Positions 12,541 through 54,200 are shown, counted from the first letter of the stretch. The stretch: 64,000 nucleotides of DNA from Candidatus Multivorans sp. (GCA_965247095.1 OZ251997.1:384001-448000), one strand, 5' to 3'. Numbers and translations: made by a program. The notes: generated from the letters alone by a model not told the origin.

Positions 12541-12561
12541 GGGGCGCGCACTTTAGCAGCG

Positions 12562-37508: not shown

Positions 37509-37898
37509 TCAGCGGATGGTGCGGACTTCGATACCCGGCAGTTCCAGTTCGAGCCAGGCGCGGTCGCCGGTGAGAGCTGGTATTCCTAACAACGAAGCGG
37601 TGGCAAGGCAGGCGCGGTCGCCGAGGCCAAGACCTGCGGATGCAGTTGCGGGCCGGAGCGCGCCGCTTGAAAGGGCGACTTCTGAATCGAAAGGTAGTGT
37701 CTCCATTCTGAATTCGCCCAGCGTCTTCGCGACTTCTCTGGCCTCCCATCCACGGTGATGGAGATGGGCGGCGACTTCAGCGAGGTTCACAGTGGAGATT
37801 GCCGCGCCGTCGCGCAAGGCGGCCCGGACGACCTCGGCGCCAGGCTCGCGCCAGAGCAGGGCCAACAGTGCCGAGGCATCGAGGAGGGCCCGAGCCAC
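37509..37898 (-). CDS. vapC: VapC PIN-domain toxin
   Basis: LLDASAL, STVNLAEV, LGLGDRACLA, TGDRAW. Confidence 0.92.
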   Translation of the reverse strand: MARALLDASALLALLWREPGAEVVRAALRDGAAISTVNLAEVAAHLHHRGWEAREVAKTLGEFRMETLPFDSEVALSSGALRPATASAGLGLGDRACLATASLLGIPALTGDRAWLELELPGIEVRTIR

Positions 37899-37899
37899 C

Positions 37900-38187
37900 T
37901 CAGTCTCGTGCCGCCTCCCGGCGTCGCTCGGCGATGAAGGCGTCGACTTCGCTCCCCGATGAACTTGTGCCGTGCTTCCGGGCAAGGGCCTGGGCGCGGG
38001 CGACTGCCGCGTCCACCGCCGTTTCCACGGTTGTTATCCGGATCGTGTCGCCTTCGAGATCGAGGATGACCTTCTGTCGAGGCTGAAAACCCAATGCCGC
38101 GCGAAAATGGGCTGGTACTACGAGCCGGCCTGCGGAGTCGATGATGGTGGAAGTCTGTGCGGGAGCGGGTGTGGGATCATCTGCCAT
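37900..38187 (-). CDS. vapB: AbrB/MazE-type antitoxin
   Basis: IDSAGRLVVPAHFRAALG, FIAERRRE; directly upstream of vapC. Confidence 0.88.
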   Translation of the reverse strand: MADDPTPAPAQTSTIIDSAGRLVVPAHFRAALGFQPRQKVILDLEGDTIRITTVETAVDAAVARAQALARKHGTSSSGSEVDAFIAERRREAARD

Positions 38188-38198
38188 AGCGCAGGAGT

Positions 38199-38312
38199 CT
38201 ACCATTGTGGCGCAGAATGGGAGGGTGCTCGGCTGTACCACGGGAGTGAGAGTAGTGGCCAGTCGCTGGGGCCAACGGTCAGCACGGCGGAGGGACGGAC
38301 AAAGGTGATCAC
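38199..38312 (-). pseudogene. Truncated fourth copy of the ABC-2 permease
   Basis: GTG start, MITFVRPSAVLTVGPSDWPLLSLPW versus MITVLRLSAVLIGGPRYWLLPLLPLPW, then a stop. Confidence 0.7.
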
Positions 38313-38361
38313 GCCGTCGCTCCGCCGTGCGTTGCCCGTATCGGCGGGTCGGTCGGCCCGG

Positions 38362-38658
38362 CTACACGCAGATCGTCATGCTCCGGAAGGTCAGGTGCAT
38401 CCCGACGGCGGTCAAGAAGGGGGAGCCAAGAGCCTGGCCGACGGCCGTAAGGAGCGCTCCGGCGACCGAGTCGGTCCTGCAACTGTGGCTCCGCGCTCCT
38501 CCAGCCACTCTCGTCAGGTCGGTGACCGTGAGCTGGTCGAGGCCATCGTGGCCGATGGTCGAGGTGCCGCCCGCCATCACGGCGTCAGGCGGTGTGGCGA
38601 AGGAAGCGCCGACGCTCAATACAAGGGCGATCGATGCAGTGGCTAGGAATCTCGTCAT
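38362..38658 (-). CDS. Putative bacteriocin-like precursor B (98 aa: signal, GG-type leader, 2-Cys core)
   Basis: RBS gaaagga; MTRFLA..SFA signal; GLDQLTVTDLTRVAGG; ends TICV; aligns with 40844..41146. Confidence 0.75.
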   Translation of the reverse strand: MTRFLATASIALVLSVGASFATPPDAVMAGGTSTIGHDGLDQLTVTDLTRVAGGARSHSCRTDSVAGALLTAVGQALGSPFLTAVGMHLTFRSMTICV

Positions 38659-38861
38659 GTCCAGTGGTCCTTTCGGTTGTAGAGGGTTGGGGGTAGCCAG
38701 GTGGTGGAGGCCGCTGTCCGCGGCTCTCGAGCCACCTATGGACCAAGACGGAATCGGCGCGGCTCCGTTCGTCTCGGTCACTTCGGTCCGAGCCGGCAGG
38801 GTCGTGTCCTTGCCTTGCTGTGAGCATGAGCCGCCCGACCGGAGGAGCCCGGGAAGCGGGC

Positions 38862-39551
38862 TCAGCCGCTGAGCATCTGCTCGCGGCGCTCCGCACGGGC
38901 GAAGGTCAGGGCGACGATGGCGGCGATGATGAGGGCAATGCCTATACGGTTCTGGACGGCCATGGTGAGCAACTGCTCGGCGTCGCCCCCTTTCACGGCG
39001 AGCGGGTTCCACAATGGCGAGATGCGCGGCTCGACCGAGAGGTATGCCATTCGAAGGTTCGGGGCGAGTAGTGCCATGGTTGCCATTGCGCCGGTGACCT
39101 CGCTTCGGAAGAGGGTGGCGAAACCCATCGCTGCTACCAGGTAGAAAGCGGCTCCCTGCGCCGTGCCGTAGATGGTCTGAACAACTGGAAAGGAAGTGAA
39201 GAAAGCAAAGGTAAGCACCGCCGTCGGCGTCAGACTTGCAAACAGGATCAGCCCTGCGGCAGCGAGTTTTCCGGTCCATACGCGACGGGTGCCGCCGGGT
39301 ACGGTGTAGGCGATCTCCAGGGTGCGCTCGTCGAGTTCGCCGGCGATGATCCGGCCGCCCAGGAAGACGGCGAGAACCGCGACCGGCGCACCAATCAGGG
39401 TGTTCTGTGCGTCGGCGGGCTCGAAGTTGGGCCGAAGCCCGGAGATGAGCAGTATCGCCTGAATTCCCAACCACGGCAGGGGCAGCAGCGGCAGCAGCCA
39501 GTAACGCGGGCCCCCGATCAGCACGGCGGAGAGACGGAGAACGGTGATCAT
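38862..39551 (-). CDS. ABC-2-type permease, copy 3
   Basis: About 6 TM, IAGELDERTLEIAYTVP..GKL; paralog of 39710 and 41406. Confidence 0.88.
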   Translation of the reverse strand: MITVLRLSAVLIGGPRYWLLPLLPLPWLGIQAILLISGLRPNFEPADAQNTLIGAPVAVLAVFLGGRIIAGELDERTLEIAYTVPGGTRRVWTGKLAAAGLILFASLTPTAVLTFAFFTSFPVVQTIYGTAQGAAFYLVAAMGFATLFRSEVTGAMATMALLAPNLRMAYLSVEPRISPLWNPLAVKGGDAEQLLTMAVQNRIGIALIIAAIVALTFARAERREQMLSG

Positions 39552-39709
39552 GCCGGAGCTCGGTCACCGGTCGCCTGGGCCGGCCAGAGGTAGCCGTCCC
39601 CGACCCGTCCGAGGCCATGGCTCTCGATGACCGGTGTAGTGCCCGCCACGACCGAGTTGGGCGGTACAGCGACAGAGGGGCAGACACTCAAGACAAGTGG
39701 CGACTCCTG

Positions 39710-40399
39710 CTAGCGGCTGAGCATCTTCTCGCGACGCTCCGCGCGAGCGAAGGTCAGGGCGACGATGGCGGCGATGGTGAGCGCGATGCCGATGCGGTTC
39801 TGGATGGTCATGGCGAGCAACTGCTCGGCGTCGGCTCCTTTCACGGCGAGCGGGTTCCAGAACGGCGAGATGCGCAGGTGCCCGCCGAAGCCGGTCACAG
39901 AGCCGTTCAAGCCGAATAGCGCAATCGTGACCAAGGCACCGCTCACCTCGCTGCGGAACAGCGTGGAGAAACCCATCGCCGCGGCTAGGTAGAAGCTGGC
40001 TCCTTGGCCAGCACCGTGGAGGGTCTGGACGACCGGAAACGCGGTGAAGAAGGCGAACGCCAGAACAGTCATCGGGATCAGGCTGCCAAGCAGGATCAGG
40101 CCTGCGGCGGTTAGTTTCCCCCACCAGACCCGATGGGCGCCGCCCGGGACGGTGTAGGCGACTTCAAGGGTGCGCTCGTCGAGTTCGCCGGTGATGATCC
40201 GGCCGCCGAGAAACACAGCGAGGATCGCTACTGGCGCACCGATCAAGGTGTTCTGTGCAGCGGCGGGTTCGAAGCCGGGACGGCCGGTGAACAGCAACAG
40301 CACCGCCTGAAGGCCTAGCCAAGTCAGTGGCAGCAGAGGTAGCAGCCAGTATCTTGGCCCTCCGATCAGCACGGCGGAAAGACGGACAACGGTTCTCAT
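39710..40399 (-). CDS. ABC-2-type permease, copy 2
   Basis: Same motifs, 229 aa. Confidence 0.88.
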   Translation of the reverse strand: MRTVVRLSAVLIGGPRYWLLPLLPLTWLGLQAVLLLFTGRPGFEPAAAQNTLIGAPVAILAVFLGGRIITGELDERTLEVAYTVPGGAHRVWWGKLTAAGLILLGSLIPMTVLAFAFFTAFPVVQTLHGAGQGASFYLAAAMGFSTLFRSEVSGALVTIALFGLNGSVTGFGGHLRISPFWNPLAVKGADAEQLLAMTIQNRIGIALTIAAIVALTFARAERREKMLSR

Positions 40400-40523
40400 T
40401 GCAGCTCTCCCCCGCGGGTTGCTTGGCCCGACCGGAGGTAGGTGTCTCTAGGCGGCGCGACGCCTCCTTCGCCTTGCATGTAGAGGGTGGTGGGCGGAGG
40501 GACTGGGGTGCAGGTACTCCGGT

Positions 40524-40733
40524 TCAGCATGTCCCGTCGCGACGAGCGGCCATCCTGCCGACGATCCAGAGAGCTGGCAGCGAGAAGAGGGATGCGATGG
40601 CGACGAACAGGACCGGAGAACCGCCGACGAGGGCCAACAGCCGACCGCTCAACCAGCTTCGCCCGAAGGCGCTGCCCGGGGCAGGTCGCAGCGGCCGGTA
40701 GGGGCGGCTTTGTAGGTCCATGAACGTCGCCAT
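40524..40733 (-). CDS. Small single-TM peptide (possible accessory or immunity protein)
   Basis: RBS ggaagga, ATG 40733, hydrophobic LLALVGGSPVLFVAIASLFSLPALWIV segment. Confidence 0.4.
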   Translation of the reverse strand: MATFMDLQSRPYRPLRPAPGSAFGRSWLSGRLLALVGGSPVLFVAIASLFSLPALWIVGRMAARRDGTC

Positions 40734-40843
40734 CGAGTCCTTCCAAACAGGAGCGTGATGCGCTATCCGCCCGCCTCTTTCCGGGGCCGAAGCCGGCACC
40801 CGCAATCAGAGAGTCTCATCGAGCGAGACGGCGCCGTTGTTGG

Positions 40844-41146
40844 CTAGACACACACAGCGTCCGCGAGGAACGGACCGGCCAACCCGGCAGCGTGCATGAG
40901 CCCCCTGCCCGTGTAGATCCCTACGAAGACAAAGGCCTCGCCCGTCGTCTCAAAAGCAGCAGTGCAAGCTCCGGACCACCAAGCTGCTCCCATCACGCCG
41001 ACCATCTCGGCATCCGCGAGTTGTTCGAGCCCGGGATTGTCGACGCCCGGATAGTCGCCCGCCACGGCCGTGACAGGCGGTTCTGCGAAGGCGCCGCCGA
41101 CACTCAGTACAAACGCTGCCACTGCGATAGATAGAACTTTCTTCAT
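40844..41146 (-). CDS. Putative bacteriocin-like precursor A (100 aa: signal, GA-type leader, 2-Cys core)
   Basis: RBS gaaagga; MKKVLS..AFA signal; GLEQLADAEMVGVMGA; ends AVCV. Confidence 0.78.
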   Translation of the reverse strand: MKKVLSIAVAAFVLSVGGAFAEPPVTAVAGDYPGVDNPGLEQLADAEMVGVMGAAWWSGACTAAFETTGEAFVFVGIYTGRGLMHAAGLAGPFLADAVCV

Positions 41147-41405
41147 GATTCTTGTTCCTTTCCGTTTCATGGGTTCTTGTTGCCGTCGACCCCTTCGGAG
41201 AGGCCGACGACGCTGGTAGACGGGAAGGTCCTGCGGAAGCCGAGGAGGCTTCGCAGGTCCACCGCCGCGCAGCGCCTTACGGCGTGCAGGGACTGTGGAC
41301 CGCCTATAGACCTATGACGGAATTCGGAGCGGCTTTTTCTGGCGAGGACCCTGAGAGGGGGCTGGGTGGCAGTGGCTGCGTGTCAGGTCGAGGGCGGAAC
41401 CCGGC

Positions 41406-42098
41406 TCAGCCGCCGAGCATCTTCTCGCGGCGTTCGGCGCGGGCGAATGTCAGGGCGACGATGGCGGCGATCGCGAGGGCGATGCCGATCCGGTTCTGGA
41501 CGCTCATCGCGAGCATCTGGTCGGCGTCGGCTCGGTCCACCGAGAGGGGGTTCCAGAACGGCGAGATGCGGAGGGGGTTTTCGCCGAAGCCGGTGATCAG
41601 GCCGTTGAGGCCAAGGAGGCCGGTCGTGGTCAGGGCGCCGGCCACCTCGCTGCGGAACAGGGTGGCGAGCCCCATGGCTGCAACCAGGTAGAAGGTGACG
41701 CCCTGGGCCGCGCCGTAGAGACTCTGGAAGACGGGGAAGGAGGTGAAGAAGGCGAACGTGACGGACGCCATCAAGGCCAGACTGGCGAGTAGCAACAGGC
41801 CGGCTGCGGCGAGCTTGCCGAGCCAGACGCGGTGAGCGCCGCCGGGTACGGTGTAGGCGATCTCAAGAGAGCGCTGGTCGAGTTCGCCGGTGATGATCCG
41901 CCCGCCCAGGAACACGGCGAGAACGGCCACCGGCATTCCGATCAGTGTGTTCTGGGCGGCGTCACGTTCGAAGCCCGTCGCGGCGCCGGCCAACAGCAGG
42001 ATCGCCTGCACGGCTAGCCACAGTAGCGGCAGCAGGGGCAGCAACCAGTAGCGCCGCCCTGCCAGCAGCACCGCGGACAGACGCAGCACGGCGATCAC
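41406..42098 (-). CDS. ABC-2-type permease, copy 1
   Basis: GTGA overlap with the RND-ABC fusion stop; about 6 TM; ITGELDQRSLE. Confidence 0.9.
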   Translation of the reverse strand: MIAVLRLSAVLLAGRRYWLLPLLPLLWLAVQAILLLAGAATGFERDAAQNTLIGMPVAVLAVFLGGRIITGELDQRSLEIAYTVPGGAHRVWLGKLAAAGLLLLASLALMASVTFAFFTSFPVFQSLYGAAQGVTFYLVAAMGLATLFRSEVAGALTTTGLLGLNGLITGFGENPLRISPFWNPLSVDRADADQMLAMSVQNRIGIALAIAAIVALTFARAERREKMLGG

Positions 42099-45000
42099 GT
42101 CGGGGCTCTGCCGCGCGCCGCCTGCGCCAGCCAGAGGTAGCCGTCCTCGAGCGTGGGTTCGACTGGTTCGGCCCGCCGATCGGGGCGGTCGGCAGCCAGC
42201 ACGCGCAGGCGGCTGCTGCCGTCGGGTTCCGGTTGGCGATCGGCGAGCACGGACGCCTCGGGAAGCTCCGGCTCCTCATCTCCGGGCGCCGTCCATGACC
42301 AGACACGGCCTTCGGCCTCTCGGGACAGCGCCGCCGGCTCGCCGTCGAACACCATGCGGCCGCCGGTGAGCACCAGTACGCGCTCGCAGGCCACCGCCAC
42401 GTCCTCGACGACGTGGGTCGAGAAGAGGACGATGCGGTCCTTGGCCAGGCGCGAGAGCAGGTTGCGGAAGCGGACGCGCTCGCGTGGGTCGAGGCCGACG
42501 GTCGGCTCGTCGACGACGATGATCGGCGGCAGGCGCAACAGCGTGCGGGCCACCGCGACCCGCTGCCGCATGCCGCCGGAGTAGCCGCCGATCGGTTCGT
42601 CCGCTCGCTCGTCGAGTCCGACTTCGCGCAGCAGGGAGCCGATGCGCTCCGCTCGCTCCGACGCCTCGATCTGGTAGAGCGCGGCGTAGTACTCGAGGTA
42701 CTGCCGGGCCGTCAGGCGCGCCGGCAGGCCGGCGTCCTGCGGCAGGTAGCCGACGTAGCGGGCCAGCCGTTTCCGTATCCTGAGCAGGGGCACGCCGCCC
42801 AGCGTGATCCGGCCGCGGGTCGAATCCAGAATGCCGGTCACCTGGCGGAGCAGGGTCGTCTTGCCCGCGCCGTTCGGACCCAGCACGCCGACCATGCCCC
42901 GCTCGACATCGAAGCTCACCGCGGCCAGCGCCTTCACCGTGTCGATCGGCAGATCGAGACCGAAGATCCGGGTTGCTGCCGCCCGCCAGAGGCGGATCAA
43001 CATGCCGCGCCAGCCACGGGTGCGCCGGCGGCGGGTTGACCGCTGCTCCCGGCGCACCGTCTCGAGACGGGCCGTGCGACGTCCGAGTTGGATCAGAAGG
43101 ATGATCGTGGAGAGGATGGCCACGACGATGAACCCGCCCACCGCGGGCTCGGTGGCGAGAGCCGGACCGACCAGGCCCGCGAGAAGCGCCCAGGGCAGCA
43201 GGGCGGACAGAACGCCCTCGATGCCGCCCGGCTCGACTCGACCAAGCGCGTCGGCGCGGCCGCGGGCACGCCGGACCTCGGTCAGCAGCCGGGAAGCGAT
43301 CAGCAGTGCGGCAATCCAGGCGCCCAGTTGGATCAGGTCGGCACGGAACCTCATGGCCAGGGCGACCGCGCCGGCGAGCAACAGGAGCAAGGGCAGGATG
43401 CGGTCCCGCGCGTCGGCGGGGTGGAAGGCCTGACCGCCGCGGTCGACGACCTGCTTGGCGAAGTCGGTCGATGCCCGCAGCGCCCGGCGCACCGGCCCCG
43501 GCCGGCCGTAGGTCTTGCGCAGGTGACGGACCACCAGCCGGGGCGGTCCGGCGTCGGCCTCCGGTTCCGGTGTCGGCGGTTTTGGCACCAGCCACACGGT
43601 GAGCCCGAGCAGGGCGCCGGCGATGAGCACGGTCGTCGTGACCTGCCAGAACATGGACTCGATCACGCCGAGAACGAACAACGGGGCGGTGGCCGCGATC
43701 ACCGCGCCGAGCCAGGTCAGAACCACCCAGGGTCCGACGCGGCTGAAGACATCGTCCAGGCGCCGCAGAAAGACGTAGCCGACCGGGATGACGAGCAGCG
43801 TGAGCACGGTCGAGGTCAGAAGACCGCCGATCACCAGGGTCGCGAAGGGCGGCCAGAGCTCGTTCTCGCGTCCCGTGGCGATGGCCAGCGGTGCGAGCGC
43901 CGCGATCGTCGTCGCGCTGGTCATCAACACCGGACGCGCGCGCTCGCGAACCGCGGCCAGGGCGGCGGCGCCCGCACTCCAGCCGGCGCCGAGTACCCGT
44001 TGCTGCATCCGGTCGACGAGCAGAACCGCCGGGTTCACCGCCAGCCCGAGGAGGACGAGCGCCCCGAGCAGCGCCATCGGATCGAGCCCGATGCCGGAGA
44101 ACATCAGCGCCCACAGCGAGCCGAGCAGGGCGAGCGGCAGCGCGAGCAGAACAAGGATCGGCAGGGTCATCGACTCGAACGCCACCGCCAGAACCAGGAA
44201 CACGAGCATCACGACCGGCGCCAGGACGCGCCGGAACCAGCTCGTGTTCTCGTCCGAGCGGTCGAGCTCGATTGTCGTTCCGGGCGGACGGTGGATGCTG
44301 GCAAGCGCCTCGTCCAGGTTGCGGTCGAATTCCAGCCGCGCCGGTCCGCCGCTTGGTACGTCGGACGAGACGCTGTAGATGACCTCCCGCTCGCGGCGGC
44401 CGTTGTGGTGTGTGATCACCGGGGAAGCCGGCGCGCGGCGCACCTGCGCCAAGGCGGCTACTGGCAGGACGCCAGCGCTCGTGGAGACGCGGAGCCGGGA
44501 CAGGCCGCTCAGCGACGCCTCGCGCTCGAAACTGCTGCCGTCCACGACCCGGGCGTCACTGGGTCGGTTCTCCGCGCGCTGGACGACGATCGGAAGCTCA
44601 CGGCCGTTCGGAAGCGGGAAGCCGCTGTTGATGCTCGTACCCTCACGGCCGGCGAGACTCAGCATCGGCAGCACATCGTCGAGCAGGACGCCGAAGGTGT
44701 CGAAGGCGCGACGGTTCGGGCTGACGTGGATCTCGTCGGGGCCGGGCCGTGAGGCTAGAAAGGCGCCGCTGATCCCCTCGATCTCCTTGAGCCGCTCGGC
44801 GACCTCCGTGGCCAGACCGGTCAACTGGTCGTTGTCGTTTCCGGACAGGATGACCCGTTTCGGCCCTGCCCCGAGCAACTCCTGGGCGCCGCCGCCACCG
44901 CCGGGACCGCCGCCCCGACCGCCCGGGCCTTCGCCTTCGCCGGGTCGCAGAATCTCGGTACCGGCGCGCCGGTTCGCGGCCCGGCGTACGAGCTGACGGA

Positions 45001-46912
45001 TCCGCGCCGCGGTCAGTTCCTCGGGGCGGTCCTCGAGTGCCTCGAGGTGGACCGTCAACGAGCCCCCCTCCTCGCGGATCATGCTTTCGACGCGGTCCAC
45101 GCCGTCGACTTCATGGACCGCCTCCAGAGGCTGGAAGGCGCGCACCGCGGAATCGAGCGAACTCCGGCTCTCGTCGAGGCGCACGGAGAACTGGACCTGG
45201 TCCGCGATCTCTGCTTCTGGCGACACTGTGTTTCCGAGCACAAAGGGCAGGGCCACGAGCGCGGTGACGACGACGGCGAGAGCCACCGACGTGATCCAGC
45301 TCGCAGGCCGCCTCAGTGCCGAGGCGAGAACTCCTGCAAACAGGATGCGGATCGGGTCGGGCGGCGCCTGTCCGGCGAAGCGTTCGCGGCGCTGTCGCAA
45401 TCGGGCCAGCCGGCGGATCGCCGCGGGCGCGGCGAGATGGCGGGCCAGCAGCGGTACGAGACCGATCGCCACCAACAGGGAACCGAACAGCGGCAGCAGG
45501 ATCGAGAGGGCGGCGATCGCGATCAGGTTGCGGATCATCGACGATCCCAGGTCGACGAGCAGCGGCGGCACGAAGACGACCGCGGTGGTCACGGACGCGG
45601 CGATGATCGCGCGGGCGGTGCGGCGGATGCCTCCCGCCGCGGCGTCGTCGGGACTTCGGCCCCGCTCGAGGCGGCGTTGGACGGACTCGAAGACCACGAC
45701 GCTGTTGTCGACCAGCAGTCCGACGCCGACCGCAAGGCCGAAGAGGCTGATCAGGTTCAGGGTCTGGCCGGCCAGGTAGAGGAAGGACAGCGCCGCGGCC
45801 AGGCTGACCGGCACCGCGATCGCTACCACCGCCACGGCCCGCCATTGGCGCAGGAAGAGGAACAGGACCGCAAGGGCGATCAGGAAGCCTGAGAGACCGA
45901 GGTTTCTCAGACGGCCGATCTGGGTCTCGACGAGTTCCGCGGCGTCGAGGCTGATGAGCAGATGAATGCCGAGGGGCTCGAGATCTGCGTTGACCTCCTC
46001 GATCCGGCGGCGCAGGTCGCGGCCGAGGCGAACCAGGTTCGCGCCCTCTTCCTGGAAGAGCAAGACCCCAACCGAGGGGTCGCCGTTGACCCGGAACAGC
46101 ATTTGTCGGCGGCCGGGGCCGACTTCGATCTCGGCGACGTGGCGCACCAGAGCCGGCCGGTCCGGCACGATCCGAACCTCGCCCATGGACACCGGGCCGA
46201 CGGGACGGCCGTCCAGCATCACCGCCGTTCGCCCGGCTTCGTCTTCCAGGCTGCCGAGGTAGCGCAAGCGGCCGGCCGCGGCGCGCACCGCCGCCGTCAC
46301 CTGCTCCGTGGTGACGCCGAGCGCTGCACAGCGGTTCGGGTCGACCCAGACGGTCAACTGCCGCGACGCACCGCCGCCGACGATCGCCTGACTGACGCCC
46401 GGCACCGCGGCCAGCCGCGGCGTGACGAGTTCCACGACCAGGTCGTGCAGGGCGTTCTGGTCGGCGGCGCCGGTGACCTGCAGGACCATGGCGAAGCTGG
46501 AAATGGCACTGCTGTCCTGGGCCTGGACGTCCAGGAAAGCGTTCCGCGGCTGGGTGCGGGCGAGGTCCGCGGCGATCCGGCGCACCTCCAGCTCGCGGAC
46601 CTTCAGGTCGACGCCGCGTTCGAAGAGGATCGTGAAGCTGCCGCCGGCGCCGCTGACCTCGCCCCAGGTCTCGGCGACCCGCGGCAGGGTCCGTACCCGG
46701 GCCTCGAGCGGCATCAGGATCTCCCGCTCGATCGTCTCCGGTTCGCTGCCCGGGCGGAAGAAGTTGACGTAGAGCTGGTCGCCGGTCAGGGCCGGGAAGA
46801 GTTCGACCGGCAGTCGTCGCCAGGCGAACAGCCCCAGGATCACAAACCCCAGGAAGAACATCGCCACGGCGACGGGGCGGCGAATGGCAAGGGTGTCGAG
46901 ACCGGCTCTCAC
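42095..46912 (-). CDS. RND (AcrB-family) permease fused to C-terminal ABC ATPase
   Basis: RRPVA..LPVELFP, GLLVDNSVVV, RARPVLMT; then GPNGAGKTT, YSGGMRQR, IVVDEPT, LFSTH. Confidence 0.92.
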   Translation of the reverse strand: MRAGLDTLAIRRPVAVAMFFLGFVILGLFAWRRLPVELFPALTGDQLYVNFFRPGSEPETIEREILMPLEARVRTLPRVAETWGEVSGAGGSFTILFERGVDLKVRELEVRRIAADLARTQPRNAFLDVQAQDSSAISSFAMVLQVTGAADQNALHDLVVELVTPRLAAVPGVSQAIVGGGASRQLTVWVDPNRCAALGVTTEQVTAAVRAAAGRLRYLGSLEDEAGRTAVMLDGRPVGPVSMGEVRIVPDRPALVRHVAEIEVGPGRRQMLFRVNGDPSVGVLLFQEEGANLVRLGRDLRRRIEEVNADLEPLGIHLLISLDAAELVETQIGRLRNLGLSGFLIALAVLFLFLRQWRAVAVVAIAVPVSLAAALSFLYLAGQTLNLISLFGLAVGVGLLVDNSVVVFESVQRRLERGRSPDDAAAGGIRRTARAIIAASVTTAVVFVPPLLVDLGSSMIRNLIAIAALSILLPLFGSLLVAIGLVPLLARHLAAPAAIRRLARLRQRRERFAGQAPPDPIRILFAGVLASALRRPASWITSVALAVVVTALVALPFVLGNTVSPEAEIADQVQFSVRLDESRSSLDSAVRAFQPLEAVHEVDGVDRVESMIREEGGSLTVHLEALEDRPEELTAARIRQLVRRAANRRAGTEILRPGEGEGPGGRGGGPGGGGGAQELLGAGPKRVILSGNDNDQLTGLATEVAERLKEIEGISGAFLASRPGPDEIHVSPNRRAFDTFGVLLDDVLPMLSLAGREGTSINSGFPLPNGRELPIVVQRAENRPSDARVVDGSSFEREASLSGLSRLRVSTSAGVLPVAALAQVRRAPASPVITHHNGRREREVIYSVSSDVPSGGPARLEFDRNLDEALASIHRPPGTTIELDRSDENTSWFRRVLAPVVMLVFLVLAVAFESMTLPILVLLALPLALLGSLWALMFSGIGLDPMALLGALVLLGLAVNPAVLLVDRMQQRVLGAGWSAGAAALAAVRERARPVLMTSATTIAALAPLAIATGRENELWPPFATLVIGGLLTSTVLTLLVIPVGYVFLRRLDDVFSRVGPWVVLTWLGAVIAATAPLFVLGVIESMFWQVTTTVLIAGALLGLTVWLVPKPPTPEPEADAGPPRLVVRHLRKTYGRPGPVRRALRASTDFAKQVVDRGGQAFHPADARDRILPLLLLLAGAVALAMRFRADLIQLGAWIAALLIASRLLTEVRRARGRADALGRVEPGGIEGVLSALLPWALLAGLVGPALATEPAVGGFIVVAILSTIILLIQLGRRTARLETVRREQRSTRRRRTRGWRGMLIRLWRAAATRIFGLDLPIDTVKALAAVSFDVERGMVGVLGPNGAGKTTLLRQVTGILDSTRGRITLGGVPLLRIRKRLARYVGYLPQDAGLPARLTARQYLEYYAALYQIEASERAERIGSLLREVGLDERADEPIGGYSGGMRQRVAVARTLLRLPPIIVVDEPTVGLDPRERVRFRNLLSRLAKDRIVLFSTHVVEDVAVACERVLVLTGGRMVFDGEPAALSREAEGRVWSWTAPGDEEPELPEASVLADRQPEPDGSSRLRVLAADRPDRRAEPVEPTLEDGYLWLAQAARGRAPT

Positions 46913-46925
46913 GTCGCTTTCCGGT

Positions 46926-49900
46926 TCAGGCGCCGGACGGGTCGCGGCGGCGCCGGGTCAGTCGCATCGAGTCGAGTATCAGGTAGAGGCAGGGCAGCAC
47001 GAGGAGCGAGCCGACGGTGGAGGTGAGGATGCCGCCGATGATCGTGTACGCCATCGGGCTTCGCAGTTCCGCGGCTTCGCCGGCGCCTATGGCAAGCGGC
47101 GCCAGGACCAGGACAGTGGTCAGGGTCGTCATCAGGATCGGCCGCAGGCGGATCGCGGCGGCCCGGGCCAGTGCGGTGCGCCGCTCCATGCCGGCGGCGA
47201 GCAGCCGGCGGGCGGTGGCAATCAGGAGGACCGCGTCGTTCACCGCCACGCCCGCGAGCACGATGAGGCCGAGCAGCGCCATGACACCGACCGGCCGTCC
47301 GAGGAAGCCGAGGGTGCAGGCGACGCCGACCAGGGCCAGGGGGATCGAGAACAACACCGTGAGCGGTTGGAGCAGGGACTCGAACGTTCCGGCGAGGACC
47401 ATCAGCACGAGAACGAGCGCCAGCAGCCCCGCCCAGCGCAGTTCGCCGACGGCGCGCTCGCGTTCCTCTTCCTCGCCGGCGAGACGGACGATCAGACCGG
47501 AGGGCAGGTCGGTTGCTGCGATCGTCTCGCCGGCTGCCGCGATCGCGCGCGGGTAGTCGCTGTCGTCGGCGACCCGGGCGGTCACCTGGGCGACGCGGCG
47601 CTGGTCGCGGCGGAAGACCTCGCGGGCGCCCTCGGCGGGGACGAAGCGGGCGACTTGGCCGAGGGCGAGGTCCGCGCCGTCGTTGCTCGTGAAGCGCAGT
47701 TTGGCGAGTTCCTCGGGCCGCGGCTGGGGCAGAGAGAGGACGACGTGGCGCTCCTCGTCTCCAGTCGAGAGCAGGGTGACCCTGCGGCCGTCGAGTGCGG
47801 CCTGGAGCACCCGGGCGATCGTTTCCAGGCCGACGCCGAGGCCGTCGGCCATCGCGCGGTCGAGTTCGATCCGCAGTTCCGGCGGTCCGCCCTCGAACGA
47901 GGAGCGGACGTTCCAGAGTTCGGATCGCACAGCCATCGCGTCGCGCAACCTGGTGGCCGCCAGGCGCAGGTCGGGCAGCGACTGGCCCGCGATCTCGACC
48001 ACGATCGGCGGTCCCGCGGAGCCGAGCGCGCGCGATAGCGCCGACGCCCCGACCTCCCACTCGATCTCGGTATCCGGCAGGTCTTGGAAGTTGGGCTGCA
48101 GGGCGGTCACGATCTGGCCGCCGGTCGGCCCTTCGGCGGACAGCCGGACGAGCAGGCGGGCCGTGTTCTCCTCAGTCAGCTCCGTGGTCACGAGCCGATC
48201 GTCCTCGGGCAGGCGGCCGACCTCGGCCTGGATCGCCTGCAGGTGCTCGCCGGCAGCCTGCCTGACCGCCTCTTCCAGCGTCGCCACGGCGCCGGCGGTG
48301 GCCTCGACGCGCTGGCCGGGCGGGCCGACCATGCGCACCGAGAACTGCCGCGGGTCGGCAGGCGGCAGCAGTTCGCTGCCCAGTCCGAGCAGAACGTAGA
48401 CGGCGCCGGCGGCGGCGAGCACCGCCACTCCGACGACCAGCCAGCGAAGCTGAAGCAGGCCGAGAACCAGGCGCTCGACGGCGCCGAAGGCCCAGCCCAG
48501 CGGACGCGCTTCGTCTTCGTCAGCGTCCACCGGCATGCTGATGGATGCCGCCGCCGATGCGTCGGCCGTGGGCTCGGGCGCGGCGGTTTGCGGTTTGGCG
48601 CGCGGCAGGAGCCAGCGCGACAGGGCCGGAATCAGCATGATCGCGACCGCCAGGGAGGCGCCGAGGGAGGCGGTGACGGTGAAGGCGATGCCTTCGATCA
48701 GGCGCGCCGCCAGACCCTGGACGAAGAGGACGGGCAGGAAGACAACGCACGTAGTGAGCGTCGAGGCGGCAATCGCGCCCGCGACCTCGCCCGTGCCCCT
48801 GGCGGCCGTGTCGGCTGCCGAGGCGCCGGGGCGGTGGCGGCGGTGGATGCTCTCCACGACGACGATCGCGTTGTCGACCAGCATGCCGGCGCCGAGCGCC
48901 AGCCCGGCCAGGGTGATGATGTTCAGAGAGTGCCCCCACAGCCGCATCGCGAACAGCGCGACGAACAGGGACACCGGCACCGCTGAAGCGACGACCAAGG
49001 TCGGACCGAGGGAGCGCAGGAACAGCGCCAGCACGACGACCGCCAGGGCGATGCCGATCAGCGCCGCGTTCGTCAGGTCGTCCATCGCGTCCTCGATCAG
49101 CGCGGCGTCGTCGTTGACCATCGAGACGAGGACCCGGGGCAGGTCGCGCTCGAGGTCGTCGAGCGCCGCGCGCACGGTGCGCGAGACCTCCACGGTGTTG
49201 GCGCCCGCCTCCTTGAACACCTGCAGGCCGACGCCCTCCTGGCCGTTCACCCGCACCAGGTGGTCGATCTCGGCGTGTGCGAGTTCGACCGTGGCGACGT
49301 CGGAGACCCGGATCGGCTGACGGACCTGCCGGCCTCCCTCCGCCTGCTGGGTGCGGTAGCGCACGACGACCCGCTCGACATCGCGGGAGTTCCGGAACCG
49401 GGAGATGCCTCGAACGAGATAGACCTGACCGCCGTCCTCCAGGGTGCCGGCGTCGATGTCGACGTTCTCGGCCACGAGGCGTTGCTCCAGTTGGTCCAAG
49501 GTGACGCCGAACGCCTGCAGGCGGTAGCGGTCGACGCGTACGCGGACCTCCAGTTCCCGCCCTCCGAGGACCCGCACCTCGGCAACGTCGGCGAGCTGCT
49601 CCATGGCCGGCGCCACCTGACGGCGCGCCAGGCGGCGGAGCTCGGCGAGATCAGGTCCTTCCGGCTCGGCGGCCAGCCCAAGGGTGATCACCGGCGACTG
49701 CCTCGGATCGAGTTGGCGGACCAGGACCTCGTCGACTTCGGGGTCGGCCGCGACCGGATTGACCGCCTTCTGCACGTCGATCAGCGCCAGGTCCATGTCG
49801 GCGTCCCAGTCGAAGCGGACGGTGGCGATCAGGCGGCCGGTGCGGGCGACCTGGTGCACCTCGCGGAGGCCGCGCACCGTGAACAGGCGCTGCTCGACCT

Positions 49901-50120
49901 GCTCGCCGTAGAGCCGCTCCATCTCGGTCGGCGGCCGGTCGCCGGAACGCACGGCGACGACGATGGTCGGCGAACGCAGGTCGGGCAGGAGGTCGATCGG
50001 CAGTTCACGCCACGACATCCAGCCCACCAAGGCGAATGCCAGGGCGGTGACGGTGACCGCTACGGGCCGGCGCGCAGCCAGGCGGGCGGGGCCGAAGGTC
50101 TCACCGGATGTTCGAGTCAT
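46926..50120 (-). CDS. RND (AcrB-family) permease
   Basis: LPIDLLPD, GMLVDNAIVVVE, RLRPILMTTLTT. Confidence 0.95.
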   Translation of the reverse strand: MTRTSGETFGPARLAARRPVAVTVTALAFALVGWMSWRELPIDLLPDLRSPTIVVAVRSGDRPPTEMERLYGEQVEQRLFTVRGLREVHQVARTGRLIATVRFDWDADMDLALIDVQKAVNPVAADPEVDEVLVRQLDPRQSPVITLGLAAEPEGPDLAELRRLARRQVAPAMEQLADVAEVRVLGGRELEVRVRVDRYRLQAFGVTLDQLEQRLVAENVDIDAGTLEDGGQVYLVRGISRFRNSRDVERVVVRYRTQQAEGGRQVRQPIRVSDVATVELAHAEIDHLVRVNGQEGVGLQVFKEAGANTVEVSRTVRAALDDLERDLPRVLVSMVNDDAALIEDAMDDLTNAALIGIALAVVVLALFLRSLGPTLVVASAVPVSLFVALFAMRLWGHSLNIITLAGLALGAGMLVDNAIVVVESIHRRHRPGASAADTAARGTGEVAGAIAASTLTTCVVFLPVLFVQGLAARLIEGIAFTVTASLGASLAVAIMLIPALSRWLLPRAKPQTAAPEPTADASAAASISMPVDADEDEARPLGWAFGAVERLVLGLLQLRWLVVGVAVLAAAGAVYVLLGLGSELLPPADPRQFSVRMVGPPGQRVEATAGAVATLEEAVRQAAGEHLQAIQAEVGRLPEDDRLVTTELTEENTARLLVRLSAEGPTGGQIVTALQPNFQDLPDTEIEWEVGASALSRALGSAGPPIVVEIAGQSLPDLRLAATRLRDAMAVRSELWNVRSSFEGGPPELRIELDRAMADGLGVGLETIARVLQAALDGRRVTLLSTGDEERHVVLSLPQPRPEELAKLRFTSNDGADLALGQVARFVPAEGAREVFRRDQRRVAQVTARVADDSDYPRAIAAAGETIAATDLPSGLIVRLAGEEEERERAVGELRWAGLLALVLVLMVLAGTFESLLQPLTVLFSIPLALVGVACTLGFLGRPVGVMALLGLIVLAGVAVNDAVLLIATARRLLAAGMERRTALARAAAIRLRPILMTTLTTVLVLAPLAIGAGEAAELRSPMAYTIIGGILTSTVGSLLVLPCLYLILDSMRLTRRRRDPSGA

Positions 50121-50159: not shown

Positions 50160-51260
50160 TTATTGGGAAACCCGGACGCGGGTGCCGTCGGTCAGGGTTT
50201 CGAGGCCGCGAACGACGACCCGCTCGCCGAGCTCCAGCCCCTGGCGAATCTCGGTGATCTCGTCGTCGCCGAGACCGAGAACGACTTCGCGCCGCACCGC
50301 GCGCTGGCCGTCGAGGACGAAGACGACGCGCCGGCCGCCGCGCTCGGTAACCGCCTCGCGCGGAATGACGGGGACGTCGTTGCGCTGCTCGACGACCAGG
50401 GTCACTTCGACGAACATGCCCGGCCGCAGCAGGCCGCCGGGATTGCGCACCGCCACCTCGGCGCGGAAGGTGTGGGTGACCGGGTCGACCTCGGGGGACA
50501 GGCGGACGACCCCGCCTTCGAACGTCTGGCCCTCCCAGGCGAAGTGCCTGAGCCGGCCCCGCTGCCCGGGGTGGACCCGCGCCAGTTCGGGGCCCACGAG
50601 GTCGATGTCGGCGATCAGGGAGGCGACCGGAGCGATCCGGGCCACCTGGAAGCCCCGGGAAACGAGCTGGCCGTCGGCGATCGGCATGCCGTTCGGGTCG
50701 CGGGCGAGTTCCATCAGCACGCCGCCGATCGGGGTCAGCATCTTCGCGCGGTCCTCGGTAAGCAGGCTCTGCTCCCAGGTCGCCTTCGCGTCTTCGAGCG
50801 CGATCTCGGCGCGGCGCAGCTCTTCGGCACTGATCAGTTCCTGCTCGAACAGCTTGGCGCGGGCGTCGCGTTCGGCCTCGGCGCCCAGGTAGGCTTGGTG
50901 GGTCGCCTCGACCCGGGCCGCGAGCCGTGCGTCCTCGCCGGTGACCTCCGCGATCATCTGCTCGGGGACGACGCGGTCGCCTTCGGCCAGCCGGTCGCCG
51001 GAACCGTTGCGGCCGATCAGCAGTCTCCCCGGCGTCTCGACCTGCAGGACGATGCTCTCGGCCGCTCGCAGAGTGCCGGTGGCGACGATCAGATCCTCGA
51101 CGTTGCCGGTTTCGACCTCGGCCGCGGTGACCGGCACCAGGAAGTCGACGGGGTCCGTGCTGCCGCCGCCTTCGCAGGCGACGATCACGGCGCAGGCGGC
51201 TATCGCGAGGCCCGCATGCCGGAGGCCGGCGATCGGGCGGGAGGGCTGCCGCGGGCTCAT
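50160..51260 (-). CDS. RND periplasmic adaptor (membrane fusion protein), lipoprotein
   Basis: IVAC lipobox, EGDRV, VDPVTHTF, LRPGMF, GLELGERVV. Confidence 0.92.
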   Translation of the reverse strand: MSPRQPSRPIAGLRHAGLAIAACAVIVACEGGGSTDPVDFLVPVTAAEVETGNVEDLIVATGTLRAAESIVLQVETPGRLLIGRNGSGDRLAEGDRVVPEQMIAEVTGEDARLAARVEATHQAYLGAEAERDARAKLFEQELISAEELRRAEIALEDAKATWEQSLLTEDRAKMLTPIGGVLMELARDPNGMPIADGQLVSRGFQVARIAPVASLIADIDLVGPELARVHPGQRGRLRHFAWEGQTFEGGVVRLSPEVDPVTHTFRAEVAVRNPGGLLRPGMFVEVTLVVEQRNDVPVIPREAVTERGGRRVVFVLDGQRAVRREVVLGLGDDEITEIRQGLELGERVVVRGLETLTDGTRVRVSQ

Positions 51261-54200
51261 AGCCCCGCGCCCCCGGTCTCGGCGCGGCCGGCGGCGGCGC
51301 TGTTGTCGAGCCGCACGAAGCGCACCGCGTCCGCGGCGACCGCTTTGCCGGAGGTCTCGTCGCTCAGGACCAGTTCGGTCGGGCCGCCGGCCAGATCGAA
51401 GTCGCCCAGCACCGCCCATCCCGCGCCCGCGGCCGCGGCGTCGAAGTCGATCGGCCGGGAGACGCCGCCGTTCTGCAACTCCAGGTCGTAGGTGCCGAGA
51501 GCCAGCCCCAGGTTCACCGAGACCCGTACGCCGCCGTCGTCGTCCCCTCCTCTTCGTGGTGCGTCTCCACCTCCGTCGCCGACCCGCACTTCCCGACGCA
51601 CGGCCGTGGCGCCGGCTGGCAGGGGCGAGAGCGACGGCACGTGCAGTTCGACCCGCCAGCGGCCGTCTGCCGGCAACTCCGTCCGGTAGATCGCGCGGCT
51701 GTTCCCTTCGCCCGCGGGCGCCAGGGCGGTCGTGCGGCGGTAGCGGCCCCAACTGGTGGGCTGTGCGTAGCGCGACCATTCGGTCGGCGGTCCGCCGAAG
51801 CTCTGGTAGACGAGCAGACCCTGATCCGTCTGGTTCGACGGCGCGAAGAAGCCAGCGAGACCGCCCTGCAGCCGGAAGCCGCCGGCATCCGCTTCATCCG
51901 TCTCGATCGAGAAGCCGGGGTCCAGGTCGTCGACGACGATCATGTCGGTCGTTGACTCGAGGAAGGCGGGCAGCCAGTCGGCCGGCCGCGTGCCGCGCAG
52001 TGGTTCGGCATCGACGATCGTCTCGTTGTTGACGCTCGGCAGATCGATCGGGAACTCCCGGCGGTTCAGCGACAGGTAAGGTGAAGCCAGCATCCTGCCC
52101 GGCACCCTGGAAGTGACCAGACCGAATTCGACGGAGCTGTTTCCCGGGATCAGGGTCGGCTCGCTGGACTCCCAGCGCACGCCGCTCGGTGCGCGGACGG
52201 CGTAGCGGAGCCGGAACAGGCCCGGAGCCTCCTCGCCGTTGTGGACGAAGAGACGGGTCTGGTACTGCGGCAGGCCCTGGTCGTCGTCCGCCAGCCGCAC
52301 GAGTTCGGCGGGGGATACGACGAAGCCCGGCAGGTCGGTCTGGTGGAGGAAGTCGCCGACCAGGCCGGCGAGGTCCAGGCCGGCTTCCTGAGCGGCCCGT
52401 TCGAGGTCGGCGGCGGTGAAGGTCGATCCCCGGTGGTCGCGCATGAGGTTCGCGAGCATCGCGGCGGTCCGTTCCCGGCCGGCGCCGTCCAGAATTGCGC
52501 CGGCAAGGGCCGAAGTCTTCAGATAGAGCGCGTTCAACGCTTTCTTCGGCTCCTCTTCGACGTCCATTTCCGTCAGCGAGGCGCCGAGAACGGCGTCCCA
52601 TACCTCGGGGCGGTCGGTGAGGCTCTGTACGATGGTGCTGGAGACCGAGGAGGCGCCTCCGCCGAGCTGGCTGAAGATGGCGCCCTGCAACACGCTGGCG
52701 ATCGTCCAGCCGAACTCGCGGTCGAACAGGTGGGCCGAGAAGTACGATTCGCCGCCGTTCACCAGCCGGTTCACCAGGTTGTTGCACAGTTCCTCGAGCG
52801 CCAGCGCCTCCGGACCGCGGGCGCCGGTCTGGTACATGAACAGATTGCGGACACCGCCGACCTCCACGTTGCCGCCCGAGAAGTCGTTGCGGAAGAACTG
52901 CTGCAGCCCGGAGGCCTTTGCCCGGGGCAGACCGCCCTCCTGCTCCTCGAACCGCTCCGGGTTGCGGAACAGGAACTCGAAGCGAGCGGTCGGCAGGCTG
53001 CTCTCGCTGAGCAGCAGCATGCCCGGCGGCGCGCGCTCGGTGTCCATCCGCCAGCCGCCGCCGTAGGAGCGCAGGGTCCAGGGAACTTCAACCAGGGTGA
53101 GCTGACGGTAGGGGTAGGGCAGGCCCAGCTCGCGCGCGCTGGTGAAGCGCTCGGCGGCGACTGCCTCGATCTCTTCCCGGGCGTCGGCGAAGAGCTCCAC
53201 GTTTCTCAGATGGCGGGGGTGGAGGAGCAGTTCGATCTCGACGCCCTCGACCTCCGTCGTCCGGCGATCGAACCGACCGGCGACCAGGGCCGCTTCGGGC
53301 ACGACTGCCACGGGTGCGAACCGTTGCCGTTCGCCGGCCGGCTCGGCTCTGCCTGGCCCGGCGACCGTCCAGCCCGAGGGGGCGCCGACCTCCAGGTCGA
53401 GTTCGAAGAAGTCTCTGGGACGCCTTCGCGGATCGGTGAGGCCGACCGACGTGCCGGGGCGCGGCATCCAGGCCAGCGCGGCGGGCAGCGCGACGTAGCG
53501 GCGCTCCGCAAAGCCGTTCAGGGCGCCGAGAAGGATGATCTGGGCGTCCTGGAACTTGATCCGGTTGAAGTCGATCGCGGAATCCAGGTACGCGAAGCGA
53601 AGGTCGGGCCGTCCGTGGGCGCGCAGGCGAAGGTCGACGGCCTCGCCCGCGGCCGGCGAGCGCCCGAGGTCGACCTCGAGCAGGCCGTCGCGGTGGTTGA
53701 ATCCGAGCGTCGCGCCGGCGGTATCCTCAATGGCGTCGACCTGGAGGCCGGGGTTCAGGCTGAAGAGAGCCTGCGAACCGCCGGCGGCGAGGAACCGGAC
53801 GTTGACATCGAGGGTCAGGCGGCCGCGCGGTGCGATGTCGACGGCGCCGTGGATCTGTTCCAGGTCAAGGACCGGTTCGCTCTGGCGTGCCGTGTGGGCG
53901 ATGCGCCAGTCGTCGATTTCGTCGACCCGGTTGCCGGCCGTGACCGCGGCGGCTGCGATCGTTCCGATGGCCGCCGCCAGGAGGCCGGCGCCGGCGGTGG
54001 CCCACAGGCGTCGCCGGGTGTCGTCGAGCCGGGGATGGACGGCGACGGCGACCGCAAGCATCCCAACGGCCAGCGCCGCGACCGTGGCCCGGTTCATCAA
54101 GTTGAAGGCGGTCCAGATCTGGGGCGCGACCTCGGAAGGATTGGTGCCGAAGCCGCCGTTGATCGCCAGCATCGGCAGGACGTAGGTCGGCACGCGGAAG

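Follow-up and report, generated by a model that had tools for sequence, protein, structure and literature searches.

A genus-restricted family of Cys-bracketed precursor peptides in transporter operons of Candidatus Multivorans and its possible maturation by Sec export and a C39 peptidase

The Peptide Genes and the Surrounding Transporter Operon

The window analysed here is a whole stretch of 64,000 nt from Candidatus Multivorans sp. (GCA_965247095.1 OZ251997.1:384001-448000), an uncultured Acidobacteriota with a genome of 4.6 Mb. It carries one long transporter operon on the minus strand, and two small precursor peptide genes, A and B, are embedded in the array of this operon. Unless indicated, the features described below are on the minus strand. 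Peptide A (100 aa, 40844..41146) starts with a predicted Sec-type signal (codons 1–21, 41084..41146), followed by an acidic pro-region ending with Gly53-Ala54 (codons 22–54, 40985..41083) and by a putative mature peptide of 46 aa, containing Cys61 and Cys99 (codons 55–100, 40847..40984). Peptide B (98 aa, 38362..38658) is organized likewise, with a predicted signal (38596..38658), a pro-region and leader ending with Gly53-Gly54 (38497..38595) and a putative mature peptide of 44 aa, containing Cys60 and Cys97 (38365..38496).

A and B are real paralogues, as a preliminary description of this DNA had proposed. Their BLASTP alignment showed 33 identities over 100 positions (33% identity, E 3e-12) with two gaps, and was gap-free over the first 55 residues. 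The shared motifs VLSVG (residues 13–17), FAxPP (20–24), AG (29–30), GLxQL (39–43) and VxG[AG]A (51–55) were found at the positions given there, as were the two Cys of each peptide and the common CV end. The ribosome-binding motif GAAAGGA, also reported earlier, precedes both starts with a 9-nt spacer in each case. Gene B is easily overlooked, and the claim that it is concealed in a spurious open reading frame (ORF) proved correct: it forms the last 98 codons of a 441-aa ORF (38362..39687). This ORF is considered spurious because it overlaps the permease 3 gene (38862..39551) out of frame and because the GC content at third codon positions (GC3) of its upstream part was 57%, compared with 79–89% for the genuine neighbour genes. 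The GC3 of B itself was 81%.

The most radical alternative would be that A and B are untranslated chance ORFs in a GC-rich DNA. The modest GC3 of A (68%) and the outcome of the sequencing-run search, which returned 20 DNA or type-unknown entries in 8 studies and no RNA entry, would be compatible with it. We hold this to be extremely improbable. Dozens of genomes share the length, the frame, the Cys pair and the leader, and the same ribosome-binding motif is found at equal spacing in A and B, the latter with a GC3 typical of its neighbours. The ratio of nonsynonymous to synonymous substitution rates (dN/dS) of the leader was 0.23–0.72 for A-type and 0.41–0.90 for B-type sequences; judged by these ratios, the leader is under purifying selection.

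The first gene of the operon encodes an ABC ATPase (54805..55806). It is followed by the genes of a large ABC-2-type membrane protein with a Golvesin_C-like C-terminal region (51257..54808, start uncertain), of a HlyD-type membrane-fusion (adaptor) protein (50160..51779, start uncertain, overlapping the upstream ORF) and of a second RND (AcrB-type) subunit of 1064 aa (46926..50120). The next gene (42095..46912) encodes an RND::ABC fusion of 1605 aa, in which the Pfam domain ACR_tran covers residues 8–1049 and an ABC ATPase residues 1331–1471, with extra hydrophobic segments. The gene of ABC-2 permease 1 (230 aa, 41406..42098) is translationally coupled to the RND::ABC gene. Beyond A lies a small ORF with one hydrophobic stretch (40524..40733), which is 69 aa long from its ATG and 93 aa from a TTG at 40805. 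Two paralogues of permease 1 follow, permease 2 (229 aa, 39710..40399) and permease 3 (229 aa, 38862..39551), the latter directly upstream of B. They are separated by a 158-nt spacer (39552..39709) carrying the relic of a third peptide gene. The relic of a fourth junction between an ATPase tail and a permease start is located just downstream of B (38258..38345). Directly after the array, a VapB-like (MazE/AbrB-type) antitoxin gene and a PIN-domain VapC gene (37509..38241) mark its end. The vapBC genes were variably truncated or replaced in three related loci (L007, L008 and L009).

All ten OEP (outer-membrane factor) matches of the genome were located elsewhere and none within the window. A scan of 38000..42200 showed no promoter-like site and a single terminator-like site, which was not above shuffled sequences; no Rfam family was found in 37800..42300. 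On the other side of the operon, a divergent ORF is present on the plus strand (56029..57510). It is overlapped by a 547-aa minus-strand ORF (55864..57507) devoid of a convincing Pfam match, which is probably not a gene.

A Small Family with a Conserved Leader

A word-indexed protein search identified 22 relatives of 97–100 aa. A profile search, one of the verifications suggested in the preliminary description, brought relatives beyond A and B: among 1.84 billion representative proteins, only 40 matched at E ≤ 1e-3, all but two of them 77–126 aa long. Their source names were exclusively "hypothetical protein", one originating from a Holophagales metagenome-assembled genome (MAG). Related genomic loci were present in six Candidatus Multivorans MAGs and in one Thermoanaerobaculia MAG. 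In a survey of the taxonomic family, a match was found in 37 of the 41 other genomes of the genus versus none of the 15 genomes from 12 sister genera. The peptides form a small unnamed family found only in Candidatus Multivorans and in a few Acidobacteriota metagenome contigs. When the six-frame translation of the 4.6-Mb genome was searched with the A-type profile, A, B, the inter-permease relic and one C39-adjoining peptide (E 6e-4) were recovered, which places the similarity of A and B above chance. The best ESM Atlas matches (0.83–0.86) were uninformative "hypothetical protein" clusters, and no relative emerged when the family profile was run against PDB sequences, where the top row (E 0.098) was a cytochrome c1 signal peptide. 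In a literature search, supplementary files excluded, no description of small Cys-bracketed allelic peptides of such architecture or of a link to an RND::ABC protein was found, nor any paper on the genus name Candidatus Multivorans. The family profile also matched P0058, an unrelated metagenome precursor of 276 aa with repeated classical "ELSDADLEAIAGAG" leaders, via the leader only. It consists of five repeats, each made of a classical "VVELSDADLEAIAGAG" double-glycine leader and a short variable segment, with no Sec signal.

The anatomy of the family was deduced from an alignment of 48 members (A3). The N-terminus showed a basic residue followed by a hydrophobic stretch of at least 12 residues in 47 of them, the exception being a 77-aa gene call. 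A small-x-small site of the A-x-A type was present in 43 of the 48, approximately 30 residues before the leader motif; in A it corresponds to A-F-A before E-P-P. A Sec-like N-terminus therefore appears to be retained in the homologues. Lipoprotein identity of A and B was rejected, no Cys being present at the end of the signal region. Amidation by a neighbouring PHM-like monooxygenase encoded on the plus strand was rejected as well: none of the 24 sequences of a second alignment (A1) ends in Gly, and the monooxygenase gene is divergently transcribed. Between the signal site and the leader motif, a poorly conserved spacer is present. The pro-region is acidic, with a median net charge of -4.

The consensus of double-glycine leaders comprises hydrophobic residues at positions -4, -7, -12 and -15, an acidic residue at -8, Gly at -2 and Gly, Ala or Ser at -1. 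Among the 48 members, L, I or V was present at -15 in 36 and at -12 in 44, D or E at -10 in 36 and at -8 in 37, L, M or I at -7 in 43, and V, L or I at -4 in 40. The Gly at -2 (Gly53) was found in 47 members, or in 48 if one alignment shift is allowed, and is the sole non-Cys residue invariant across all subtypes. The next residue was Gly in 22 and Ala in 12, so that the putative cut site is GG or GA in 34 of the 48. Both A (L40, L43, E47, M48, V51, G53, A54) and B (L40, L43, D47, L48, V51, G53, G54) agree with this consensus, to be compared with the "lv-x-GG" motif given in PMC5557850.

Exactly two Cys follow the leader in all 48 members. The first lies 3–8 residues past the motif and the second 29–37 residues later, leaving a tail of 1–4 residues. 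The conservation of the Cys pair and of the motif Gly, on which the earlier proposal depended, is in agreement with that proposal. The putative mature part is 39–48 aa long and hydrophobic, with a median grand average of hydropathy (GRAVY) of 0.93.

The C39 Peptidase and Its Locus

C39 peptidases, like double-glycine leaders, belong to the textbook picture of cytoplasmic bacteriocin export. The genome contained one match to the C39 peptidase family (PF03412), a stand-alone ORF of 183 aa located 1.9 Mb from the window. Its profile was matched to the solved double-glycine proteases PCAT1 (E 1.9e-22), LahT150 (8.4e-22) and also ComA. In 24 homologues of 175–237 aa, Cys65, His139 and Asp153/154 were invariant. 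An Arg-rich N-terminal stretch and approximately 20 hydrophobic residues precede the C39 domain in 23 of them; the 24th is cut at its N-terminus. In peptidase-containing ABC transporters (PCAT), C39 is the N-terminal cytoplasmic domain of the exporter, whereas here it is a stand-alone anchored ORF, with a peptidase domain predicted to be on the periplasmic side. When five complete genomes from four sister genera were searched, the C39 profile matched only PCAT-like ORFs of 742–999 aa.

The best NCBIfam matches of the peptidase were NHLM_micro_ABC1 (4.7e-25) and bacteriocin_ABC (3.9e-15). Below the cut-offs, it also matched C39_FapD (E 7e-14, 51.6 bits for a cut-off of 330) and pilus_FilB (E 1.3e-6, 27.9 bits for a cut-off of 475). 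These two sub-threshold matches are what could suggest that A and B are surface-fibre subunits, of a Fap-like amyloid or a Fil-type pilus, cut by a C39 of the FapD/FilB type. Such a role seems very improbable. The best matches are bacteriocin exporters, and no Pfam outer-membrane channel or usher was present at either locus (FapF models not searched by name). The cores of 39–48 aa are hydrophobic, helical in models and devoid of amyloid-type repeats. The C39 locus carries other membrane-associated genes instead, namely a DrrA-like ABC ATPase and a YknW-family membrane protein.

Directly upstream of the C39 gene lies a gene for a membrane-anchored thioredoxin-like protein (Redoxin, with a CGNC motif), the pair being located at 6919..7963 of the C39 locus (L012; G000:C1:2306918-2307962). 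All 48 redoxin matches, from 42 of 42 genomes of the genus, were within 1.2 kb of a C39 match. As far as can be judged from the sequences, the anchored C39 and its thioredoxin-like partner fit processing and disulfide formation after Sec export. Three family peptides with the A/B-like architecture are encoded downstream of the C39 gene.

Other genes were observed at this locus. Between the C39 gene and the three peptides, a 123-aa ORF (L012 8105..8476) shows a Pro/Cys-rich C-terminal part and matches neither Pfam nor NCBIfam. Past an internal Met, a hydrophobic stretch of this ORF resembles a signal peptide, and the Cys/Pro-rich protein may be another client of C39 or of the redoxin. Beyond the peptides (L012 10072..13365) are found a 566-aa polytopic membrane protein without a family, the DrrA-like ABC ATPase and the YknW-family (Yip1) membrane protein. 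YknW is part of the Bacillus YknWXYZ system, which confers protection from the SDP toxin peptide.

Structure and Complex Predictions

AlphaFold2 was run with the family alignment. In the model of A (mean predicted local distance difference test, pLDDT, of 74.9; core blocks 78–91), a signal helix (residues 2–19) and a low-confidence spacer are followed by a short helix over the leader motif (45–52) and by two helices (56–79 and 82–99). The model of B shows the same topology, with helices 54–77 and 80–97 (mean pLDDT 63.9, core blocks 70–82). The core structure prediction that had been called for gave in both cases a predicted helix-turn-helix with the two Cys at its open end. Since both Cys are equidistant from the turn in the models (TGRG in A, GSP in B), a disulfide would staple the open end of the hairpin. 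In a Foldseek comparison of the A model with the PDB, no match was found at E ≤ 0.001; the weak, non-significant rows were mostly transmembrane proteins.

For the complex between C39 residues 45–183 and A residues 22–66, the interface score ipSAE was 0.43 (runs at 0.45, 0.43 and 0.42), and the best control reached 0.04. At least 72% of the contacts were shared between runs, and the pLDDT of the partner was at least 52. The mark used for ipSAE was reached by 58 of 80 solved complexes and by 2 of 110 mismatched pairs; those passing with a score of 0.60 or less were only 7 of these 80 and both mismatches. The prediction lends weak support to a C39–leader complex, and its passing the mark may reflect likeness to solved PCAT/C39 structures in the PDB.

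Genomic Association across the Genus

The 42 genomes of the genus contained 90 peptide matches, counts that are to be read as those of one lineage with related, non-independent genomes. A C39 gene lay within 4 kb of 36 of the 90 peptides and an RND::ABC gene within 8 kb of 58; four were near both and none near neither. The genomes G015 and G044 each carry another RND::ABC copy (78% identity), with C39 directly behind it and then a peptide with the canonical GG motif. In a third genome (G024), the syntenic locus, with the same vapB and downstream gene, comprises RND::ABC, an opposite-strand peptide, an insertion-sequence remnant, a permease, C39 and a peptide. The last 268 residues of RND::ABC, corresponding to its ATPase end, had a match in 41 of the 42 genomes, mostly in ORFs of about 1600–1670 aa, with a second copy in two. 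Permease 1 was not found in the five complete genomes of four sister genera (E ≤ 1e-10), so the operon is not comparable just outside the genus.

The proximity of the pump may be read in another way, with the peptides being inner-membrane subunits or regulators of the ABC-2 or RND::ABC transporter. The hairpin would then stay in the producer membrane, with the conserved region docking on the transporter. The alternation of peptide and permease genes in one operon, the 58 matches near the pump gene and the transmembrane proteins among the weak Foldseek rows, none of them significant, all speak in favour of this reading, which we nevertheless regard as unlikely. Peptides are also found at C39 loci devoid of an RND pump (36 of 90 near C39, only four of them also near the pump), and conversely 8 of 43 pump copies have no peptide nearby. 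The presence of at least six core alleles swapped at a fixed point, described below, would be unexpected for a subunit of a pump which stays 92–97% identical (81–88% in the most distant locus, L010). A secreted product would agree better with helices of 18–24 residues closed by a Cys pair and preceded by an acidic pro-region and a signal that looks cleavable.

Core Polymorphism and History of the Array

Seven related loci were all syntenic with the window. The flanking pump proteins were 81–98% identical across them, compared with only 49–82% for A. Pump identity was 92–97% in the six Candidatus Multivorans relatives and 81–88% in L010. Starting from the pump gene, collinear DNA identity was 92–94% in L005, L006 and L009 and 79% in L010, and in all four it ended at positions 40959–40961 of the window. 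This corresponds to codon 62/63 of A, directly after Cys61. Synonymous divergence was 0.15–0.46 in the leader and 0.55–0.81 when cores of unlike type were compared. By eye, the 23 A-type sequences fall into at least six very divergent core types. Because identity stops at Cys61 and the synonymous divergence of the cores exceeds that of the leader, the A-type cores are, on this sequence evidence, old divergent alleles recombined onto a conserved leader at Cys61. Such allelic swapping is the pattern expected for peptides of competition between close relatives. The B-type cores were far more conserved, with a proportion of nonsynonymous differences (pN) of 0.01–0.19; a third core type occupies the place of B in L007, L009 and L010.

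The small ORF found after A (40524..40733 in the window; GC3 80%, no Pfam or NCBIfam family) followed the A-type peptide in 8 of 9 units from eight loci, and in L010 its frame is broken by a stop. It was 95% identical in L004, which has the same core type as the window, and different where the core differs. It is a candidate for a cognate immunity or accessory protein, although its tracking of the core type would also be expected from mere linkage within one cassette. The existence of core alleles and of a small ORF varying with them speaks for antagonism among close relatives.

The relic at 39552..39709 joins leader residues ~10–47 to a duplicate of the final RND::ABC codons, and marks a tandem duplication junction. 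Such an "ATPase-tail / permease start" junction occurs four times, the fourth being truncated (38258..38345). The four repeats imply that the array grew by tandem duplication of permease-plus-peptide units and was cut off at VapBC. In 7 of 8 loci there are as many permeases as peptides and relics together; we rejected this equality as a firm rule because L005 has an additional truncated permease and a fourth permease-start relic follows B. The array is a rearrangement hot spot. Two further rearrangements were observed: in L010 (~10700..12790) the second permease gene is split by an insertion of ~2.1 kb, and in L014 (5062..5703) an integrase-like (insertion-sequence) remnant lies between a peptide gene and a permease.

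A Proposed Maturation Pathway and Its Alternatives

Our proposal is that A and B represent the pre-pro-forms of secreted peptides which resemble bacteriocins (class II microcins), constitute a family restricted to the genus and undergo two-step extracytoplasmic maturation. Judged from the sequences, we consider this assignment evenly balanced between right and wrong. In this model, the N-terminal 21 residues would act as a Sec signal cut at the A-x-A site. The acidic pro-region, with its double-glycine-type recognition helix, would then be removed after Gly53-x54 by the anchored, periplasm-facing C39 acting in trans, as suggested by the genomic association and by the weak modelling. In a third step, the thioredoxin-like CxxC protein or the general Dsb system would join the two invariant Cys, closing the stapled open end of a hydrophobic helix-turn-helix hairpin of ~45 residues. 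We infer this disulfide from the invariance of the Cys pair and from the redoxin partner. The last step, the least certain and suggested by context alone, would involve the RND::ABC operon taking the peptide from the periplasm or the outer leaflet. The peptide would be released via an outer-membrane channel encoded elsewhere, kept off the membrane of the producer, or both. RND::ABC would likely power the ABC-2 permeases and serve as the way by which the peptide leaves, or is expelled from, the periplasm, and the repeated ABC-2 permeases, together with the small ORF after A, might be specificity or immunity components.

A more ambitious hypothesis is that these elements make up an undescribed diderm two-step bacteriocin pathway composed of Sec, a periplasmic C39 with its oxidoreductase, an RND pump with its own ABC ATPase and allele-specific permeases. 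It is put forward tentatively, as a rather doubtful possibility. The interchangeable ABC-2 permeases, duplicated with the peptide genes, would in such a pathway give each allele its own export or self-protection channel.

Several observations weigh against the proposal of a C39-matured bacteriocin-like family. The scan of A and B with Pfam and NCBIfam returned no family. The double-glycine leader assignment made in the preliminary description found no backing in curated models: TIGR01847, the bacteriocin leader model, and the other double-glycine models all remained below threshold. Among the 48 members, the sub-threshold NCBIfam matches concerned TIGR01847 in 2 (best E 0.0026), TIGR03893 in 3 and TIGR04149 in 3, in addition to bactofencin, BlpC and lactococcin G-beta; several of these families carry double-glycine leaders. 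At the putative cut site, GR, GE, GT or GK was found in 13 of the 48. R, E, T and K after the Gly are not known from characterised C39 sites; cleavage may thus occur at another place or require another specificity. The C39 gene is absent from the window locus, which makes its action in trans an assumption, and with 57 matches in 42 of 42 genomes its universality in the genus means that presence or absence cannot discriminate. The orientation of its domain is a prediction from the positive-inside rule, and the complex score falls in the weak zone of the tool.

Several of these points would be accounted for by export through Sec only, residues 22–60 being a pro-domain or chaperone segment that is leader-like by descent or chance, with a C39 inactive on A and B. 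The lack of a C39 gene in the window locus, the 13 unusual cut sites, the sub-threshold curated models and the weak complex score would all follow. We consider this improbable in view of the 90 out of 90 family matches found beside a C39 or pump gene and of the three loci with a pump or permease, C39 and peptide in a row. The motif Gly, moreover, is the one invariant non-Cys residue across subtypes, and the hydrophobic periodicity fits the leader pattern.

Other points concern the function and the pump rather than the cleavage proposed for the bacteriocin-like family. The putative mature parts are not cationic, with a median net charge of +1 and a value of -2 for A. Core dN/dS was ~0.3–1.6 with saturated dS, and positive selection is not demonstrated. 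The GC3 of A (40847..41146; 68%) is below that of its neighbours and of B, as might result from recent import or recombination of the core cassette. Nor does the pump seem dedicated to the peptides: it is present in 41 of 42 genomes, and 8 of its 43 copies lack a detectable peptide nearby. The last permease of L004 and L006 is 71–74% identical to the permeases of the window, compared with 78–87% for B, so that this permease does not co-vary with B.

The main alternatives to antagonism are the inner-membrane accessory role considered above and a pheromone role. In the latter, A and B would be secreted signals (pheromones or kin-recognition tags) going through the same Sec-then-C39 processing, the variable core representing "pherotypes" read by a receptor. 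ComC and BlpC also use double-glycine leaders. The presence of the BlpC model among the sub-threshold matches, mature parts that are not cationic, and a conserved leader carrying recombining allelic mature parts, which is a pherotype pattern too, would agree with signalling. We find it decidedly unlikely, as no histidine kinase or other receptor gene was present at either locus, the variable neighbours being a small one-helix ORF and transporter permeases, and a very hydrophobic 45-residue hairpin (GRAVY median 0.93) would be unusual for a diffusible signal.

The two-step maturation first advanced in the preliminary description is, overall, supported by gene context and conservation, with cleavage, disulfide, membrane activity and antimicrobial effect being putative. 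Should the more ambitious pathway prove real, the periplasmic branch of the C39 peptidases would gain its first clear substrates among small peptides, and the RND::ABC fusion pump a biological role. As candidate substrates, the peptides are short and easy to synthesise and have a precise predicted cut site; a partner oxidoreductase is at hand, and the genomes link them to the peptidase. The question of what periplasmic C39 peptidases cut thereby becomes directly testable. The results also suggest a competition system in an uncultured Acidobacteriota genus, with alleles swapped at a fixed point like toxin cassettes, and a natural cargo or function for the unusual RND::ABC fusion pump.

Comparison with Known Systems

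Class IIa microcins of Gram-negative bacteria, such as microcin V, share several properties with A and B. They too are short (a few dozen residues), hydrophobic, rich in Gly and Ala and unmodified; their leader shows the same periodicity of hydrophobic and acidic residues up to a final Gly-Gly or Gly-Ala, and they have a Cys pair capable of forming a disulfide. The C39 is homologous to PCAT1, LahT and ComA, and the locus comprises an adaptor and an inner-membrane pump. Export of peptides of the microcin V type relies on a PCAT, in which C39 is part of the ABC transporter, together with an adaptor protein and TolC. In the peptides described here, by contrast, the leader is internal, behind a Sec-type signal (47 of 48 N-termini are signal-like), the C39 is stand-alone with an N-terminal anchor instead of being built into an ABC exporter, and the pump unites RND and ABC parts in one protein, its ABC-2 permeases being encoded separately. 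None of the curated microcin or bacteriocin models matched.

Bacteriocins of the enterocin P type, from Gram-positive bacteria, are small and unmodified and rely on a Sec signal in place of a dedicated exporter; a small immunity gene frequently lies downstream. They mature in a single signal-peptidase step, whereas here a conserved acidic pro-region of 33 residues with a C39-type motif intervenes.

The claim that a Sec signal together with a double-glycine leader is unusual needs to be softened: FapD, from the functional amyloid system of Pseudomonas, is presented in PMC5557850 as a periplasmic, catalytically required C39 peptidase, with neither its target nor its cut site defined. Like FapD and FilB, the Candidatus Multivorans C39 is a stand-alone C39; it has a putative export signal or anchor and is predicted here to act in the periplasm on Sec-exported proteins. 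It falls far below the cut-offs of the FapD and FilB equivalogs (51.6 versus 330 and 27.9 versus 475 bits). Unlike in the Fap and Fil loci, no outer-membrane channel or usher family was seen among the scanned ORFs (FapF models not searched by name). The substrates also differ, being here precursors of ~100 aa for small hydrophobic hairpins, with allelic cores, encoded beside ABC and RND transporters.

The STII enterotoxin of Escherichia coli follows, according to PMC8277102, a route of Sec export, periplasmic disulfide formation and then passage through the tripartite pump MacAB-TolC. Its logic, including a pump with an adaptor protein, is the same as the one proposed here. STII differs from A and B in having no sequence relationship with them, no double-glycine-type pro-region and no C39 step, and in using a MacB-type pump instead of RND::ABC and ABC-2 proteins.

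Finally, the polymorphism can be compared with that of polymorphic toxin cassettes. The variable module of the peptides is only ~40 residues long and has no enzymatic toxin domain, unlike that of polymorphic toxins, and an immunity function of the small ORF or the permeases is putative. Both systems are characterised by a sharp recombination boundary at a fixed motif, here Cys61, by old divergent alleles and by a small downstream gene that changes together with the variable module.

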